A DNA stretch of 63,574 nucleotides, counting the filler. It is 21 parts of 21 records of this genome, joined end to end, with 100 filler letters (N's around TTAATTAATTAA, not from the genome) between each part and the next. Parts side by side here need not be neighbours in the genome. Positions count along the whole stretch, not along the records: positions 25,961 to 28,096 come from SRR36015645_29050; 20 more parts are not named here. One strand, 5' to 3'. The position numbers were made by a program, and so were the translations under genes. The notes under the pieces were generated by a model. That model was given only the letters and a program-made list of their open reading frames with translations, made no database searches and was not told where the DNA came from. Below, one piece after another: positions 25,861-43,057 of this stretch; within the stretch, counting starts at the first letter, position 1; the number at the start of each line of letters is the position of its first letter.

Positions 25861-26011
25861 NNNNNNNNNNNNNNNNNNNNNNNNNNNNNNNNNNNNNNNN
25901 NNNNTTAATTAATTAANNNNNNNNNNNNNNNNNNNNNNNNNNNNNNNNNNNNNNNNNNNNTGGTGATGAAAAAGCGCTTGTTAGGAGAAAGAATAATAAG
26001 CACCAACAGAC

Positions 26012-27376
26012 ATGATAAAAAATGGTTGGTGCCATAAATTTTTCTTGGTTTTTCAGGCAACGTGTGGAAGTGATGTTGAAAGCTTACAGGAAAAAACTAT
26101 ACCAGTCGATATTAATTGTAACGGAAAAAATAGCGAAAATTTTAATTTTTGCCAAGGGTGTGGAAGGCAGGTGCAATCGGTACAAGGCTTGCTTCGGTCT
26201 ATAGATCAGACGGAAATTTTAAATAGAAAAAAATTTCTTTTTAACAAAGAAACCAAGTACAGTGGTAGGAAAAAAACCCTTAGCACAGAATTCAGTCAGT
26301 TCATCCGGTCTTGGGAACAAGGGAAGGATATGTATAACTGCACTGCAGATGATGTCATAAATTTTCTTATTTGGAAAGATGCGGGAGGGAAAACGCAGGT
26401 GCATGCAGAAAATTGTATTTATTTGGGTCTGCATGGTAAAAAGGAGTGTGATTGTCCGGTGAGATTAGCAGCCACTACTGTGGACTCAATGATAGGCATG
26501 TTACGGGCAATATTCAATGAGATAGGCAGAGAGGAAGATGGGAGGTTAGACTTACAAAATCCAGCGGCACATCCTAAAGTAAAGAAGTACAGAAAACTAA
26601 TGTTTGAAGAGCAGGCACAAGCTTCAATAACTCCAAAACAAAGTCCACCAATATTTATAGATAAATTAGCTGTCCTATCGCGGCATATTGAAGGGAAGAT
26701 ACAAACCTGTACTATTCCTATCCAAAGATACATTTATTCACGAGATCAGGCTTTTTTCAAGCTACAGCTATTCTCAGGAAACAGGCCAGGAGACTTATCT
26801 CAGCTCAAAACCCAAGAAATATTAAGATTCCCCCAGGATGATGGGCTGTTGTTTAACCAAACCTTTGGGAAAACACTTAGAGGTGGAAAATCAAACTTGT
26901 TCGGAGTAAAACGGTGCGGCAACACAACAGTATGTCCAATAAAGGGGGTAGAAGATTATATGTTCATGGCTCGTAGTATGGGGATCATGCTAACACCAGG
27001 TTTCCTTTTCCGGACAACAACAAAAAAGGGGGAAGTAGCAGACGACCCAGCCACCTCGTCCGGTATGAATGTCAGGTTGGAAACTTATCTGTCAGAAATA
27101 GGGATGAACGATGGCGAAACATTACAGGGGTTCAGAGGTGGCTGTGCTATAACTTTAGCGTTAATGGGCTCCGAACTTTCATCAATCATGTCACATGTAG
27201 GTTGGGAGAGGGCACATACAGCAAATTACTACACTAAGATATCCCAGGTCCTCTTTAATGATGCTCCAGCAGAGATGCTTCGCGCGGCAGCAGATGAGGG
27301 AAAAGCCACAGAAAGGAATGAGGAATATCTGCAGAAAGACAGGCTTTTGGCTTTCACTCGAGCTTTTACCCAGTAG
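26012..27376 (+). CDS. Tyrosine recombinase with N-terminal ALOG-type DNA-binding domain (DIRS-type retroposon)
   Basis: ALOG signature FLIWKDAGGKTQVHxxxCxxxGxxxxxxCDCPVRLAATTVDSMIGMLRAIF..NPAAHPKVKKY. YR catalytic motifs SGNRPGDL (R), GKTLR (K), LQGFR ([H]xxR), HVGW and NYY (Y). The start codon is uncertain. Confidence 0.85.
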   Translation: MIKNGWCHKFFLVFQATCGSDVESLQEKTIPVDINCNGKNSENFNFCQGCGRQVQSVQGLLRSIDQTEILNRKKFLFNKETKYSGRKKTLSTEFSQFIRSWEQGKDMYNCTADDVINFLIWKDAGGKTQVHAENCIYLGLHGKKECDCPVRLAATTVDSMIGMLRAIFNEIGREEDGRLDLQNPAAHPKVKKYRKLMFEEQAQASITPKQSPPIFIDKLAVLSRHIEGKIQTCTIPIQRYIYSRDQAFFKLQLFSGNRPGDLSQLKTQEILRFPQDDGLLFNQTFGKTLRGGKSNLFGVKRCGNTTVCPIKGVEDYMFMARSMGIMLTPGFLFRTTTKKGEVADDPATSSGMNVRLETYLSEIGMNDGETLQGFRGGCAITLALMGSELSSIMSHVGWERAHTANYYTKISQVLFNDAPAEMLRAAADEGKATERNEEYLQKDRLLAFTRAFTQ

Positions 27377-27463
27377 TATCGGTTTCGTTAGCAAAATGCA
27401 GGGAGTGACTAAAAAAGCTGGGTACAAAACAAATGGGTTATTTATTTATATTTGTAGCCATCA

Positions 27464-28033
27464 ATGTGGATTGTAGGAGACTCTATCGTTAGAGACCTGG
27501 TGAGCTCGCTGAGCTTCGGGGAAGGATATTGTTCATGCCTTCCGGGGGCGACTTTCAAAACGGTAAACGAGCAGTTTAACTCCCTATTTAATGGAAGGGA
27601 GGATTGGGCGTGCCCGTTAGTACTGCACATAGGAACGAATGAGTTTGGAAAAATTACAGGGCGAACAAGAGCCAGAGAATTGGGATCACTGCTACAAAAG
27701 TTCAGGGTCCTCGTAAAGAGAATAGAGGAGAAATGTCCAAAACTAACAATTTTTATTTCAGAAATACTTCCCCATGACAACTATGTATCCGACACCCCAG
27801 AGACTAATGGGTATATTAGAAAGTTCAACAAGCTATTACTGAAGAATTTTCCGGGAAGGGTGTTAGTTCATCACACAATAAGGGCCCCGATAAAGGCTGG
27901 TAAAGGCAGTGAGATCTTGAGGGATGGCCTACACCTTAGACCGGAAAAGGTATATCTGCTGGCACAACAGTTTGATCAATTGGCAAACACATACTACAGA
28001 GGCTTAAATGAAAACAAAGTAATTCGAATCTAA
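27464..28033 (+). CDS. SGNH/GDSL hydrolase-like protein
   Basis: Block I WIVGDSIVR, block II LPGAT, block III LHIGTNE, block V RDGLHL. Confidence 0.88.
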   Translation: MWIVGDSIVRDLVSSLSFGEGYCSCLPGATFKTVNEQFNSLFNGREDWACPLVLHIGTNEFGKITGRTRARELGSLLQKFRVLVKRIEEKCPKLTIFISEILPHDNYVSDTPETNGYIRKFNKLLLKNFPGRVLVHHTIRAPIKAGKGSEILRDGLHLRPEKVYLLAQQFDQLANTYYRGLNENKVIRI

Positions 28034-28072
28034 GGTGGGGGGCCACCCCATAAGGCACAAGGGCAACACGAG

Positions 28073-28096
28073 AAAAAAAAAAAAAAAAAAAAAAAA
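28073..28096 (+). repeat. Poly(A) run of 24 nt at the fragment end
   Basis: Pure A run starting 40 nt after the SGNH stop codon. Confidence 0.9.
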
Positions 28097-33449: not shown

Positions 33450-34345
33450 AACTCACCAGAACAAACGAAGTGAGTAAAGAAGACAACACCAGCGAAGTAG
33501 GAATTGCAGAACAGAGTGAGCCAGTCCAGGAAATACAGGAAAATATGGGTCGGCCTATTGACCCAACGATTAGCGAAAATAGTATAGTCACACCAGAGAC
33601 ACCCAAAGACGTATCCAGTAGTAAACCAGTGGAAGGTTCCGTTGGAGAAAATGTAGCAGATCAAAAATCGGATTGCAACAATCATACAGAAACGCCTGCA
33701 GTATCTTACAACACAGTCATACAAAACTTCAAAAGGCAAATGGACCCAGAGACAGCTAGCATAAGCTCCCAGCAAAGTACTGATTATCAGTTTTTTGACG
33801 CAAGCGACAACCTGGAAAAAGAAACAGATAGAGAATCTCAGGATGCTACAAATGCACTGAATCAGGACAAAAATGAATCAGACGTTGCTGAAGCAAGACC
33901 ACAGAAAAGAAAGAGACTGGAAAAGGTAAACAAGAACGACAGCCTGGACAAAAATGAAATGAGTGATATGGAAACATCATCAATCTGCACATCCTTAACG
34001 AGTGTAGACTTGTCTAAAGAAGAGGAGACCGCGAAAGGAAATGAGGAAGCCAAACAAAATGATTCCGCCAGTAACTCCAAAAACAAAATACCTCCTGGTC
34101 TAAATCCAACCTATGTGCACCTCTCTTTCATGGAGCCCTTCATGACACAAGAAGGTTTGTGGCATTGGAGACGCAGAGACAATAAAGTAATCATCTGCAA
34201 AAACGTACTGACTATGGAGAAGATGAACGAGAGCGAAATGGAAGAACTGAAAAAATACAAGTCAAAAGAACCAATGTTCACGAAGGGCAGATACTGGTGG
34301 AGAAGTAAACGAACAGAAAAACGTAACAATGGATTACAGAACTAA
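33450..34345 (+). CDS. C-terminal part of L1/Tx1 ORF1p (low-complexity, acidic/basic)
   Basis: Long open frame directly upstream of, and overlapping, an APE-encoding ORF2. No diagnostic motif is present in the fragment. Confidence 0.65.
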
Positions 34346-35614
34346 ATCGAATGTAAAAAATCGCTCACACCCAGTAAGAAGAAGGTGTGATCGAGTAAAG
34401 TTAGCCTACCTTGTTATTCTGGCTTTATATGCAATGGCTCTGAAAATACAGACTTTAAATGTAAGAGGACTACAAAACTATGATAAGAGAACAGAAATAT
34501 TCGAATGGTTAAAACGGACAAAAGCAGAAGTTGCTGTGCTTCAGGAAACGCATTCGATAGCAAGGAACGAGGATCAATGGCGCAACGAGTGGGGAGGCCA
34601 AATATTTTTTAGCCATGGAGATAGCGATGCCAGAGGTGTATGTATATTGGTTAATAGCAAAAAGAACTTGAAAGCTTCAACACTGAAACGTGATCACCAT
34701 GGACGATTAATAAGCTTAGACATAGAATGGGACAAACAGCCTTTAAGAATAACAAATATTTATGCGCCAAACTCTGCAACAGAAAGAAATGAATTCCTTA
34801 AAAACTCTGTCCAACATGCCATAAGTGACCAAAGACTTAACATCTTAATTGGTGACATGAACGTGACGCTAGATGCATATAAAGACTCCCTTCATCCAAG
34901 AACAGGAAACGATATAAGCAGAAGAACATTACTTTCCATGATGAGCGATAACAACTTAGTTGACATATGGAGAACACGGTATCCAGATGAAAAACGATTT
35001 ACATATTACAATAGAAGTAAAACAATTGCCAGCAGACTAGACTACATACTACTGGATGGAAGGCTTACTTCTTCCGTGACGAGTATAGACATCAAACCTT
35101 TCGTATGGAGTGACCACAACAGTGTAACAATGAAGATAGAACCAATGGACGATATACAACGAGGTCCTGGAAAGTGGATAATGAATGAATCGCTACTTAA
35201 AGATAACCTGTATAAAACACAAGTTAACAATCTAATCAATAATTGGAAAACCGCAAAGCCTGAAGATAAGACGTGGCTAGAATGGTGGGAAAAGCTCAAA
35301 TGTGACATCAAAGAATTGAGCATAACATACAGTGAACAAAACTGCAGATCTGATAACCGAAAGTTAAAAAAACTAGAGAAGGACTATAAAAGAATTCAAC
35401 GCAAAATTAACGATGGACAATCGCGGTACTCAGAGTTATTGAATACCATTGAACAAGAAATTAAACGTTTAAATGAATTGAAAACGGAAGCCTCACGAAT
35501 GCGATCACGTATCCAATGGGAAGAGGAAGGGGAAACTCCGACAAAGTTCTTCTTTGGATTGGAAAAGGAAAGAGGAAAGTCAAAATTGATAAGAGGAATA
35601 ATTGGACGAGACAA
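34329..35614 (+). CDS. Tx1/L1 ORF2 APE endonuclease (alternative start ATG 34434), 3'-truncated
   Basis: TLNVRGL, LQETH, NIYAPN, GDMN, SRLDYI, SDH, RGPGKWIMNESLL, EGETPTKFFFGLEK. Confidence 0.93.
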
Positions 35615-38288: not shown

Positions 38289-40330
38289 GGAAAAATTTGG
38301 ATGACAGCATTCCTCAACTGAGTTCTTGTCTTCAATATACTTCTTGCCAACAATGATAAAATCTCCACAGCAAACTTGTGTTGATGTATCATACGCCCAA
38401 ACTCCACAGCACTCTTGCTTTGGTGTTCTTGGAAACCTCTGCTTATTTTGGCAGCAAATATGGGACGTCGTGTTATAAAGAGAGCCTTTATCTTTGTTTC
38501 CACAACATTTAAAATCAGAAGACTGGTCGTGTATGTTACCGCCACAACAAAAACTCTTGGCATTGTCGTAGGGAACATTTTGGCAACAATCTGAATCTAG
38601 ATTAAGCAGCTGCGTTGATGCACTCGTGTTGGTTAGCGTGTTCATGCAACACTGTTTGGATGTTGGAGCTTGGTATCTGTTTTGTTGGGATGTGCAGCAC
38701 GACACAGGTGCCAGTTTCTTATCTGTGGACCTTTCGCAACAACTTTCCGTTGAGGAATTGTATGGAAGAATGTCCATGCAGCATTTGTCGTTTTCCCCTT
38801 TTTTGAGAACGCTTCTGTCGCAACAGTACTCATTTTGCTGGTTGTAAATTTTTCCAGCACAACAATCGCTTGTTTGTCTATCATAGGCTACTGCCCTGCG
38901 GTGACCATACAAGTACGATGAACAACAGCCTTGAGTAGCATTGTTAATTACTTTATCACCACAACAAACCATATTCCCATCGGCTGACACGTTATGAACA
39001 CTTCCGTAACAACATAATTGGCTAAAAGGATTATAGACCGATATCGTTGTCTCTGCAGAATCATGGAAAGGCACAAATGTATTTGATGCACAGCAGCCAA
39101 TATTGAATGTGTTCCTTTCAAAAATTCTTCCTTGACAACAAGTACTGTTTACTAAAAAGTAGGGAGCTGGCACAGTGTTTGATTTGCCGGTGACGTCATA
39201 ACAGCAAGAATCGTATAGAGATTTATCGTATGTTGCACTGCCACAGCAGCCATGTGTTGTGATGTTGTAGTTAACTGAGCCACATCGAGCTAGTGACGGG
39301 ATATTCTTATCGCAACTACTTTTCCAATCTGTGTAACCGAAATATATATATAATGGTATACTCTGTTCGCAACAAGACTCTGTTAATATGTTAAACGTTT
39401 TGTTGCCACAGCATGTGATGCCAAACTGATGTTCATATACTTCGCCATTACAGCACATATGCATCAAAGGATTATATGCAGAAATTCCAGCACTGACTGA
39501 GTATAACATTCGATTCATGCAACAGGAAGTGTTTAAGCCTTTTTCAAACACAGCTCTGCCACCGCAGCACATCTCTCTTGCAGTATTATATGGCAATTTT
39601 CCACAACATTTCACGTCCGCCGAACTCCTATTGTACAAACTACCTCCACAGCAAATATAGTCTTCCACATTATATGGTTTATCTGCGCAACGGTAGGTTC
39701 TAGGCACTAATGTGCGTCCCCCCGGATATCTGTACGAGCAACTCATTAATGTAGCGTTGTACGGTACACTATCACAGCAGGAAGTGGCATTGTTTTTATC
39801 ATATAACGTTCCTTGACAACATATTTCTGTCGCCAAATCATACGGTTTGAACTCTGAAGAGTTTCGGATTTTGCCGCAACAAGATGTGGTCGTCCCGGGC
39901 GGAATGTCGTGAATTAAATTACCGCAGCATGTTTTTGTATAACGATCATAAATCTCGTTTCTGCAGCAACCATGTGTCTTGTAAGAATATGTAGTGTTGC
40001 CACAACAACCGGTGTGATGCGGTGACTCCTTAATGATAAGGTTTTGTGACCTACAACACACGTGCCTACTTCTGTCGAATGGTATTCCATTACAACAGGA
40101 CATTTCGTCACTTGTTTTATTATACAGTCTTCTGTTGCAGCATATTGAAGTTTTGTCAGAATAGCATTCGTTACCACATTTTGATCTGCAGTGGACCCCA
40201 GAGTAGTGAGAACAATATTGCATTTCACTATCAAAGGGAACAATATCGTTACAACACTTTGTATTGCTCCCAATATCATATACCGTTCCATTGCAGCAGA
40301 ATTGCTTTTCTCCGTCAATCACTTTGCCAT
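38289..40330 (-). CDS. Galaxin/usherin-like di-cysteine repeat protein (internal fragment)
   Basis: About 680 open codons of ~25-30-aa units of the form Y(D/N)xxxxxCCxGxxYxxxxxxxCCG, with many N-glycosylation sequons. Confidence 0.85.
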
Positions 40331-40430: not shown

Positions 40431-41222
40431 AAAGTATCGGCAACATCTGGGGAACCAACATCGGATGCGGCGCCGGCGTCTATCCATGAATTGCGCCAGA
40501 TTAAAGACTTACAGACAGAAGTAGAAAGACAGATGCGTCACGACCCAATTGTTGGTGAACAGTGTAAACAGAATGTGGATATTTGTTCTGCAGGTAATAA
40601 TGATTTTCTATACGCGTGTAAATCTGATTCTTGTGTAACAAAAGTTAAATCTGGAATTCAGCTAAAAGCATCTGACATAGTTAAGCGCCAAGAGAATTAC
40701 CCACATGCCTTTTTGCAGTATGAAGACCAAAATATCTCTTATAACAATTTAACAATGCCGCAGTTTGTTTCGGGGTTTATGTGTATTTTAAATTCGGAAA
40801 TTTCTGAGGTAGAAAGGCAAGGTAGAACTCAGCACTTAGCTAAATTAATGCACTATGCAAACAGTTATCCTTGGCATACAATTTTACAGTTGCATAAATC
40901 AGTTGTCTTGTCTATTGAGATGGGCCGAAAGGAATGGGACTCGGATTTCTCCGATATTGAGAACAGTGTCTTGCTAGGATTTGCCTTAAATAACAGGAAT
41001 GTAATGAATAATAGGGTGCCGAACAATGACAGTGTTTTCTATTGTAGTAATTTTCAAAACAATACTTGCAGATTCAAACAGAGAAGTCATTTTCAATTGA
41101 TAGCTGGTGTTAATAGAAATGTGTTGCACATTTGCAAGAGATGCTGGGTTTCTCAGCGCGAAAAGGCGTGGCATAGTGAGGGGTCCGAGTCTTGTCCTCT
41201 TCGGAATGAACACAACAAATGA
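40431..41222 (+). CDS. DIRS/Ngaro-type gag-like ORF with C-terminal Cys/His finger (5'-truncated)
   Basis: VKSG..YPH..YNNLTMPQFVSGFMCI..HLAKLMHYA..YPW..H..IEMG..W, then FYCSNFQNNTC..H..HICKRC..H....CP. Directly precedes a DIRS-type RT. Confidence 0.75.
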   Translation, partial: KVSATSGEPTSDAAPASIHELRQIKDLQTEVERQMRHDPIVGEQCKQNVDICSAGNNDFLYACKSDSCVTKVKSGIQLKASDIVKRQENYPHAFLQYEDQNISYNNLTMPQFVSGFMCILNSEISEVERQGRTQHLAKLMHYANSYPWHTILQLHKSVVLSIEMGRKEWDSDFSDIENSVLLGFALNNRNVMNNRVPNNDSVFYCSNFQNNTCRFKQRSHFQLIAGVNRNVLHICKRCWVSQREKAWHSEGSESCPLRNEHNK

Positions 41223-43057
41223 CTAGGCTTAGGGCGTGCATCAGGTAGACCTATTCCTTCTGTGACCAAAGCACGTGTGTATAACAAAAGATTTGTAAAC
41301 AACACCGGTACTATTAGTAAATGTTATAATTCTGATAATACATGTAACGTGTCTAATGTGGATAAAAGTGTTTGTTTGAAACAAGGCACAACTGTAATTA
41401 GTGCTAACACGCAAGCTTTGCGCCAGACATCAAAAATTTTGGCATTGGATGTTCAGTCACAGTCGGCTGAAGCTACTTGTAAACAGCCTAGTAAAGTTCA
41501 CAACCTGCAATCTAAAAACGAAGAGAGGCGGCATGTTAATAGTTTGGAACCAATACCTAATATTGATAGGCCTACTAATGTGCTTTTAAAGCAAAACATG
41601 GAAATCATTTACAGTGTACGGTTCTTGCTTATTATGTATGTTATGACAGTGTGTTTTATGCTTATGTGTTTTAGTGTTGCAAACGTCTCACTTCCTATCG
41701 CAGACACAGGCCTACTTCAGCACAGTGCTTGTAATACGTGTAGTTCTGTTTCAGAATGCCTTTTTGAGAGTCAGTGTGCAGGTATCGATTTTGGTCCCAA
41801 AGCGTTATTTTGCAGTAAAGGTAAAATTAATAAGGTTGCGGTGCCCACGAAGGCACAAAGCTTTACAGTTACACGTTCTGGCCTAAAGCATAAAACCTTC
41901 TTCGAAAGTACTTTACTGTTCGATATTATTAGTCAACGGCATGTAGATATGTCTGATGGATTAGGCTTTGTAAGTTACGCACTCTCCGATGAGTATGACC
42001 CAGTGAGTATTGCTAACCATGTAATACAAACCGAAAAACCTAATTTTATGATGGCTAAAATTCCAGTGAAATCAAATTTGAATATTTTAAATTGGCGTGA
42101 ATTGTTGGTTGAATATTATGATTATTCGATATGTGACTATCTAGAGTTCGGCTGGCCCATAGGCTTCAATTATGAGTTTTTTCCTGTAGGCAGCGAGCGT
42201 GGAGTAAATCACAAGGGGGCTACGCAGTTCCAGTCTCAGTTGGATTCTTATATCCAAAAGGAACGAAGTTTAGGTGCGGTATTAGGTCCGTTTGAAGACA
42301 ATCCGTTTATTTTGCAGTGTGTGACGTCACCACTTAATACAGTACCAAAAACCGACAATAAACGCCGTGTTATTCTAGATCTTAGCTTTCCGTTAAATGT
42401 TTCAGTGAACGATGGCATCCCAAAAAATACTTATTTGGGATCGAATTACAGTTTAACATTGCCAACTGTGGACAATTTTGCCAACTTGGTCTGTATGTCG
42501 GGCAGGGGGTGCTACTTGTATAAAGTGGATCTTGAAAGAGCTTACCGACAAATACCTGTTGATCCGCGCGACTACCCGTTATTAGGCTATTGCTGGGATG
42601 ACAAATTATTTTTTGACACAGTGTTAGCAATGGGCATGCGCTCTTCAGCTATGATAATGCAGCGTTGTACCGATGCAATAGGTCATATCATGTGGGAACA
42701 AAATTTTTGGTGTGAAAATTACATAGATGATTTTTTCGGAGTTCAGAAAACTTTTGAAACAGCTGTAAGCGCCAAAAACCATTTAAAGCAGACAATGCAT
42801 AAATTGGGCCTGGTGGATAAGCCAGAAAAAGAAGTTGGGCCCGTAACTAGTTTAGAAGTTTTGGGTGTAAACTTTGATTCACAAACTATGACGATTAGTA
42901 CGACCACAGTAAGGCTACAAGAGGCTTTAGAAATTATAGCGACTTGGCAGTGCAAAAAACGTTGTTCATTAAGGGAACTACAGGTGCTTGTGGGTAAGCT
43001 CATGTTCATATCAAAGTGCGTCAAACAAAGTCGCTTGTTTATGTCCCGATTAATTGA
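41223..43057 (+). CDS. DIRS/Ngaro-type reverse transcriptase ORF (3'-truncated), in frame with gag
   Basis: LEFGWPIGF, NHKGA, LGPF, SPLNTVPK, RRVILDLSFP, SVNDGI, KVDLERAYRQIP, LAMGMRSS, NYIDDF, LEVLGVNFD, LQVLVGKL. Confidence 0.9.

Follow-up and report, generated by a model that had tools for sequence, protein, structure and literature searches.

Two ORFs lie in tandem on the plus strand of a separate contig of 2136 nt (positions 25961–28096): a tyrosine recombinase (YR) with an ALOG domain (ORF1, 26012–27376) and, downstream of it, a predicted SGNH/GDSL esterase (ORF2, 27464–28033). The contig is one of 21 separate sequences, 2.0–5.9 kb each, that were joined with N44-TTAATTAATTAA-N44 linkers into the 63,574-nt stretch of DNA analyzed here (the window). 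Because it is bounded by N linkers on both sides, the adjoining window sequences are not its genomic neighbors. Most of the 21 segments are spanned over their whole length by a single long ORF, which is what transcripts look like. Several window segments encode retroelement or transposon proteins, and one encodes a galaxin-repeat protein.

The contig starts 51 nt before the ATG of ORF1, with a 5′ leader (25961–26011, plus strand) in which all three frames are closed and a short frame ending in TGA overlaps the ORF1 start codon (ATGA). No RT ORF enters from the 5′ end in any of the contig frames. Past ORF2, a 3′ untranslated tail of 39 nt (28034–28072, plus strand), in which AATAAA and ATTAAA are absent, leads into an A run of 24 nt at the contig end (28073–28096, plus strand), which is either a poly(A) tail or a templated A tract. 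A small GC hairpin in the tail was dropped from consideration, as its folding was no better than that of shuffled sequences (z −0.33), and a search of the contig with Rfam yielded a subthreshold snoRNA match only. Neither RT, gag nor a terminal repeat was found in the 2136 nt, nor was any repeat longer than 20 nt; at this length the contig could not include both ends of an element, and such repeats are therefore not excluded by their absence. Elsewhere in the window, tblastn detected no second copy of either ORF. An exact look-up of both proteins in the protein collection returned neither, and viral contigs contained relatives of neither.

Domain makeup of ORF1 and ORF2

ORF1 (454 aa; stop codon included in the coordinates) comprises a zinc ribbon, an ALOG domain and a YR catalytic domain. 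The N-terminal zinc ribbon (26108–26164, residues 33–51) was delineated from the family alignment and from weak matches to Pfam DZR and Zn_Ribbon_1. Its family consensus is CPxC...FCQxCG, of which ORF1 keeps C36, C47 and C50, the first Cys being replaced by Asp (D33). The ALOG domain (26249–26593, residues 80–194) matched Pfam ALOG_dom (PF04852) at 93 bits (E 2e-26, cut-off 26.6). Searched against solved structures, it matched the ALOG domain of plant LSH3 (PDB 8p5q) with an E-value of 1.4e-11 for ORF1 alone and of 2.6e-19 for the A1 profile. A zinc-ribbon insert within the domain carries the ligands H131, C135, C146 and C148 (HxxxC...CxC), which occupy invariant or nearly invariant alignment columns and are all four kept in ORF1. 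Residues 126–165, which include this motif, read GGKTQVHAENC...ECDCPVRLAATTVDSMIGMLRA.

The catalytic domain (26732–27241, residues 241–410) matched Phage_integrase (PF00589) with a score of 25.1 bits (E 1.8e-5), slightly short of the 27.1 cut-off, and a profile search of the PDB matched no solved YR structure by sequence at E 0.01. With catalytic roles that we presume for the alignment columns from the YR motif, ORF1 has five of the six residues of the R-K-H-R-H/W-Y set (R244, K287, R375, H395 and Y407). The sixth, the HxxR histidine, is nearly invariant in the family and is Gln (Q372) in ORF1. Change of this His to other residues is tolerated in some recombinases. In the family alignment, the first 30 residues of ORF1 are unlike those of its relatives. 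Because Gln stands in place of the HxxR His and Asp in place of one zinc-ribbon Cys, this copy of ORF1 may be weakened.

ORF2 (189 aa, pI 9.4) is, judged by its motifs, a divergent, stand-alone SGNH/GDSL esterase. All four blocks of the fold family are present, GDS (S7), PGA (G28), GTNE (N59) and DGLH (D155, H158), and, as blocks I, II, III and V, they line up with those of six SGNH proteins and of PDB 4c1b. The latter is the ORF1p esterase of the LINE ZfL2-1 (PMC3905857) and the only significant solved relative of ORF2 (E 7.2e-7). The match to Pfam Lipase_GDSL_2 (PF13472), at 23 bits, is below the cut-off of 32.9. Among 1.84 billion representatives, ORF2 had seven matches at E up to 0.001 (best E 1.2e-5); six of these are the SGNH proteins, two of which have coiled-coil-like N-terminal parts. 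A word-index search with ORF2 gave no match. The protein is nearly an orphan and, having no close relative, is not linkable to any YR element elsewhere. In a language-model atlas, the nearest clusters are GDSL proteins of ~190 aa, mostly from mollusks, which we take as a lead only. A structural model built from a 7-row alignment was weak (pLDDT 59.1, pTM 0.61), and the single-sequence fold was unusable (pLDDT 45). The best Foldseek match, obtained from the weak model, had an E-value of 1.8e-3, with none reaching 0.001; the leading rows were SGNH-family enzymes, the related OSK domain of Oskar, and design scaffolds built on GDSL-like proteins.

Inspection by eye showed neither a coiled coil nor a signal peptide or transmembrane segment in ORF2. 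Its first residues are MWIVGDS, and the open frame around it extends only two codons further upstream. Since it lacks a coiled coil and is followed by no pol gene, only the 39-nt tail and the A run lying 3′ of it, we ruled out that ORF2 is a piece of a LINE.

The initial annotation had called a YR bearing the zinc-ribbon signature found at residues 126–165, had assigned its N-terminal part to ALOG, and had placed a complete SGNH hydrolase 87 nt downstream on the same strand. The profile and motif matches bear out these domain calls, with the Phage_integrase and Lipase_GDSL_2 scores both under their cut-offs, and the distance is exact.

Relatives of ORF1 and their RT context

A homolog search with ORF1 returned 132 proteins, which are up to about 52% identical to it over most of its extent; those that bear a name belong to Porites, Actinostola, Paramuricea and Ptychodera (cnidarians and a hemichordate). 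All 22 family members that were aligned match ALOG, and 21 of them also match Phage_integrase (E up to 0.001, best 3.6e-12). In the Atlas, the catalytic half resembles clusters of eukaryotic YRs, Crypton-type DUF3504 proteins among them; this is a lead only and does not separate Ngaro from other YR groups. A quick maximum-likelihood tree with 62 rows places the ORF1 protein (P0001) inside the main clade, which holds the RT-linked members, on a long branch (1.46 versus a median of 0.25).

The long branch is one of several features that would suit a decaying or host-co-opted remnant, in which recombination has been lost and the ALOG part would bind DNA, if it acts at all. The Gln at the nearly invariant HxxR His, the Asp at one zinc-ribbon Cys and the divergence of the first 30 residues from those of the relatives point the same way. 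However, both ORFs are intact (454 and 189 codons), five of six catalytic residues and four of four ALOG zinc ligands are kept in ORF1, all SGNH catalytic residues are kept in ORF2, and the HxxR position is one at which some recombinases tolerate other residues. Most metazoan copies of ALOG-type elements are reported as inactive in the main text of PMC3537659, which speaks for a remnant; Iyer and Aravind there also suggested a DNA-binding role for remnants in Nematostella. On balance, we hold the remnant to be rather improbable.

The neighborhood of the relatives was examined in metagenome contigs, a scan of which gave 175 confirmed relatives; the best 80 of these were taken as related loci. 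Ten large ORFs that immediately precede the YR were tested: 8 matched RVT_1, and 9 are homologous to one another, with identities of 39–97%. The best-preserved family (L001, L002 and L009) has a CCHC gag-like ORF followed by an RT/RNase H ORF of 750 aa, a gap of 94 nt, a ZnR-ALOG-YR ORF of 450 aa and a tail of ~1 kb. Copies of this ~6.1-kb unit follow one another head to tail, and subrepeats of 141 nt lie where they meet. The RNase H match is weak in this family, and a search of the 750-aa pol ORF of the relatives, itself a weak test, found no methylase. Only two ORF1 homologs longer than the recombinase itself were found, both of them predicted RT+ALOG+YR fusions from sea anemone. The RT-ALOG-YR arrangement of the relatives matches the ALOG-type DIRS1-like retroposons set out in the main text of Iyer and Aravind 2012 (PMC3537659).

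The window itself offers no cognate RT. One segment (40431–43057) was considered as the missing RT and rejected: it is only 21–25% identical to the ALOG-YR-linked RTs, which are 39–97% identical among themselves, and no close RT was found elsewhere in the 63,574 nt. This lack, together with a contig that opens 51 nt before the ORF1 ATG with three closed frames, would be expected if the contig were nearly a whole transcript of a Crypton-like or other RT-less unit, or of a nonautonomous deletion derivative, consisting of YR and SGNH only. The Crypton-type clusters near the catalytic half could be read likewise, as a lead only. Against such a unit, every relative with a readable context is RT-linked, both through the upstream ORFs (8 of 10 with RVT_1) and through the longer homologs (fusions in two of two cases). 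Moreover, the start of the contig is an assembly end and not a defined transcript start, and the short frame closing at ATGA may be the last piece of an ORF that begins further upstream. Such an RT-less unit or derivative is in our judgment distinctly unlikely.

Pairing of ORF1 with ORF2

Exactly 87 nt separate the ORF1 stop from the start of ORF2, which shares the strand and the reading frame of ORF1. The spacer (27377–27463, plus strand) is 34% GC and contains three more in-frame stops, making four between the ORFs, as well as a short ORF (ATG at 27396) that overlaps the start of ORF2. Fusion of ORF1 to ORF2 by read-through or splicing was rejected in view of the four in-frame stops and of candidate GT...AG joins that, by eye, are out of frame. 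In trinucleotide makeup, the ORF1 and ORF2 parts correlate at 0.80, whereas the ORF2 part correlates with any other segment at 0.69 or less. GC3 is 0.385 in ORF1 and 0.460 in ORF2. Within the contig, no repeat or target-site-like duplication flanks ORF2. The spacing, the shared strand and the trinucleotide correlation weakly support the unity of the two ORFs.

No SGNH sequence was detected by tblastn, with ORF2 and its six SGNH matches as queries, in the 80 related loci (best 80 of 175). An HMM built from ORF2 and these matches was run on 5433 ORFs from the 80 loci and the window and picked up nothing but ORF2. Of the 80 loci, 46 extend for 700 nt or more past the YR match, which in 39 of them runs as far as the YR C-terminus. 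Ten ORFs located downstream in related loci were tested as well, and none matched an SGNH family; small, unrelated downstream ORFs are common to subsets of the relatives. The two fused RT-ALOG-YR proteins have no SGNH part either.

These counts (0 of 80 and 0 of 2) are what one would expect if ORF1 and ORF2 were unrelated, either as YR and A-tailed SGNH transcripts joined by the assembler or as an SGNH retrocopy inserted downstream of the YR in one genomic copy. An AT-rich, stop-filled spacer, the unequal GC3 and the A run 39 nt after ORF2 without a signal would fit that origin too. Yet the two ORFs are on one strand with 87 nt between them, their trinucleotide correlation exceeds that of ORF2 with any other segment, and ORF2 is neither flanked by a repeat or target-site-like duplication nor, with no coiled coil and no pol after it, a piece of a LINE. 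YR followed by SGNH is, in addition, an established natural order by the published outlines of Ngaro. On balance, we consider it unlikely that the two ORFs do not belong together.

We see a slightly better than even chance that the contig is the 3′ portion of the RNA of an ALOG-clade, DIRS-order YR retrotransposon from a marine-invertebrate host, with ORF2 as an accessory esterase. ORF1 would then be the recombinase of the element, its zinc ribbon and ALOG domain binding the element ends and its catalytic domain joining the DNA copy to the genome. The RT/gag part would lie upstream of the contig. ORF2 would belong to the same element as ORF1, as a retroelement-type accessory esterase placed where Ngaro carries its hydrolase. 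By analogy with ZfL2-1, it would probably bind or cut membrane phospholipids and so aid the assembly or movement of the element ribonucleoprotein. In favor of this reading stand the ALOG match, the RT-linked relatives and the place of P0001 in their clade, the aligned SGNH blocks with 4c1b as best solved match, the trinucleotide correlation and the Ngaro gene order. DIRS or Ngaro RNAs are expected to end in terminal repeats, and the A run, only 39 nt past ORF2 and without a poly(A) signal, counts against the accessory-esterase reading. So do the missing RT, gag and terminal repeats of the contig, the absence of SGNH from the related loci and fusion proteins, the isolation of ORF2 in the sequence search, the YR and SGNH Pfam scores under their cut-offs, the poor ORF2 model and the long branch of P0001. 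A further possibility, which we entertain but would not expect to hold, is an acquisition separate from that of Ngaro, in which an ALOG-clade DIRS-order lineage, as yet absent from public protein sets, took up a LINE-type SGNH esterase as its 3′ ORF.

The initial annotation had gone further and placed the two ORFs in one element that may define a little-described YR-retroposon lineage. That the pairing is unusual for the ALOG clade is upheld by its absence from the 80 related loci. The terms "one element" and "lineage" outrun a single contig of 2.1 kb with no RT, terminal repeats or second copy, and the pairing is less new than was implied, because an SGNH ORF behind the YR is the textbook order in Ngaro. 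Both ORFs are of known kinds, and their combination in the ALOG clade is possibly a new variant, known here from a single short contig.

Esterase ORFs recur in unrelated retroelements, and the sole biochemical lead to their role is lipid binding by the ORF1p esterase of ZfL2-1. A small, stand-alone, basic SGNH protein beside a recombinase would make an easy second test case for that role. If the pairing is real, the ALOG branch, the presumed source of the plant ALOG regulators, would have gained the same enzyme in modular fashion. If independent capture were true, the ALOG clade would join LINE, Ngaro, LTR and Penelope-like elements as recruiters of esterases, which would point to a shared pool of esterase modules for a common lipid or membrane step in retrotransposition.

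Comparison with known retroelements

The ALOG-type DIRS1-like retroposons, as presented in the main text of PMC3537659, have the same recombinase order as ORF1 (zinc ribbon, ALOG with a zinc-ribbon insert, then YR) and likewise come from marine-invertebrate hosts. They also have RT/RNase H directly upstream, as do the relatives of the contig. The derivation of the ALOG domain from DIRS1-type recombinases, on which the initial annotation had drawn, is upheld by the same text (PMC3537659). The Ectocarpus element described there carries a methylase, whereas none was detected in the relatives of the contig. What the contig adds to this architecture is the 3′ SGNH ORF; the words SGNH, hydrolase and esterase are all absent from the main text of PMC3537659, Additional file 1 aside.

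In published outlines, Ngaro shows the same order as the contig, a DIRS-order element whose 3′ end holds an SGNH ORF preceded by the YR; the two were compared by this gene-order description. Hydrolase cases also occur in fish. The passages on Ngaro-like elements in PMC9210276, PMC7192593 and PMC6681497 place an SGNH hydrolase ORF after the YR and give its function as unknown. They include hydrolase cases described from amphibian (PMC9210276) and credit the hydrolase-bearing elements to Goodwin and Poulter 2004 (via PMC9210276 and PMC7192593). The initial annotation had cited SGNH domains as cargo of Ngaro and as part of CR1/L2 ORF1, and both statements hold, by these passages for Ngaro (PMC9210276, PMC7192593) and by PMC3905857 for the LINEs. 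In the literature searched, no paper meaningfully links Ngaro with ALOG. There, the pairing of an ALOG-clade YR with SGNH appears undescribed, Ngaro being compared by description only.

In the LINE clades CR1, L2 and RTEX, ORF1p has an active esterase that binds acidic phospholipids (PMC3905857). The ORF1p esterase of ZfL2-1, CR1 and RTEX has the same Ser, Gly, Asn, Asp and His as ORF2, and both are basic. In these LINEs, ORF1p starts with a coiled coil and precedes pol, whereas ORF2 is stand-alone and at the 3′ end. Compared with the LINE esterase, ORF2 starts four residues before GDS and carries 7 extra residues inserted immediately behind block III.

Rotifer LTR and Penelope-like elements have gained GDSL ORF3s, some lineages of a retroelement family acquiring the ORF and others not (PMC5408684). 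In the bdelloid Vesta LTR elements and Athena PLEs, the accessory GDSL esterase is an extra 3′ ORF, like that of the contig, from which they differ in retroelement class and host. With the Ngaro, LINE and rotifer cases published, an SGNH ORF behind a YR is therefore an arrangement already known. The LINE esterases represent a capture separate from the rotifer ones (PMC5408684), and it is with the LINE-type esterases that ORF2 groups.

ORF1 residue changes and related ALOG-YR elements

Two signature positions are altered in ORF1, the recombinase with an ALOG domain at 26012–27376 (+). Asp replaces the first zinc-ribbon cysteine (D33, window 26108–26110), and Gln replaces the nearly invariant histidine of the HxxR motif (Q372, window 27125–27127). 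The ORF1 transcript may derive from a weakened copy.

At two metagenome loci with ORF1 relatives, copies of an ALOG-YR retroelement occupy positions 6021–12865 (L001) and 1–7793 (L009). The unit is approximately 6.1 kb long and encodes a CCHC gag-like ORF, a 750-aa RT/RNase H ORF, and a 450-aa tyrosine recombinase. Copies follow one another head to tail, and subrepeats of 141 nt lie where two copies meet; a search for inverted repeats in this family found none.

Immediately 3′ of the recombinase, related loci (L019, L021, L032, L046, L062, and others) carry small ORFs, which are common to subsets of elements in groups of 5, 3, 3, 2, and 2 loci. These downstream ORFs match no Pfam family, the sole exception being a weak BEN match at L077. 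The 3′ slot of related elements seems to hold variable cargo.

Composition of the window

Each of the 21 window segments is a contig in its own right, 2 kb or longer; the linker N44-TTAATTAATTAA-N44 joins them, and the adjacency of contigs within the window is without meaning. A single unbroken ORF fills most of them, a pattern typical of transcripts. At 38289–40328 (−), a 680-aa ORF contains five galaxin-like repeats (Pfam 242 bits). It belongs to the host, not to a mobile element, and may point to a coral-like source or some other marine invertebrate.

Other mobile elements and candidates in the window

Terminal inverted repeats of 30 nt, perfectly matched, bound both segment 1–5933 and segment 6034–11815, and each of the two encodes one ORF of approximately 1550 aa; a Pfam search with these two ORFs returned no matches at E 1e-4. 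Both segments may be complete DNA transposons of an unrecognized kind, or transcripts of such elements. A Ty3/Gypsy-type pol with protease, RT, RNase H, and integrase lies at 11918–15280. Retroelement transcripts are also represented by an endonuclease/exonuclease/phosphatase ORF (34251–35612) and by an RT ORF (41223–43055), the latter bearing only a distant likeness to the RTs linked to ALOG-YR recombinases.
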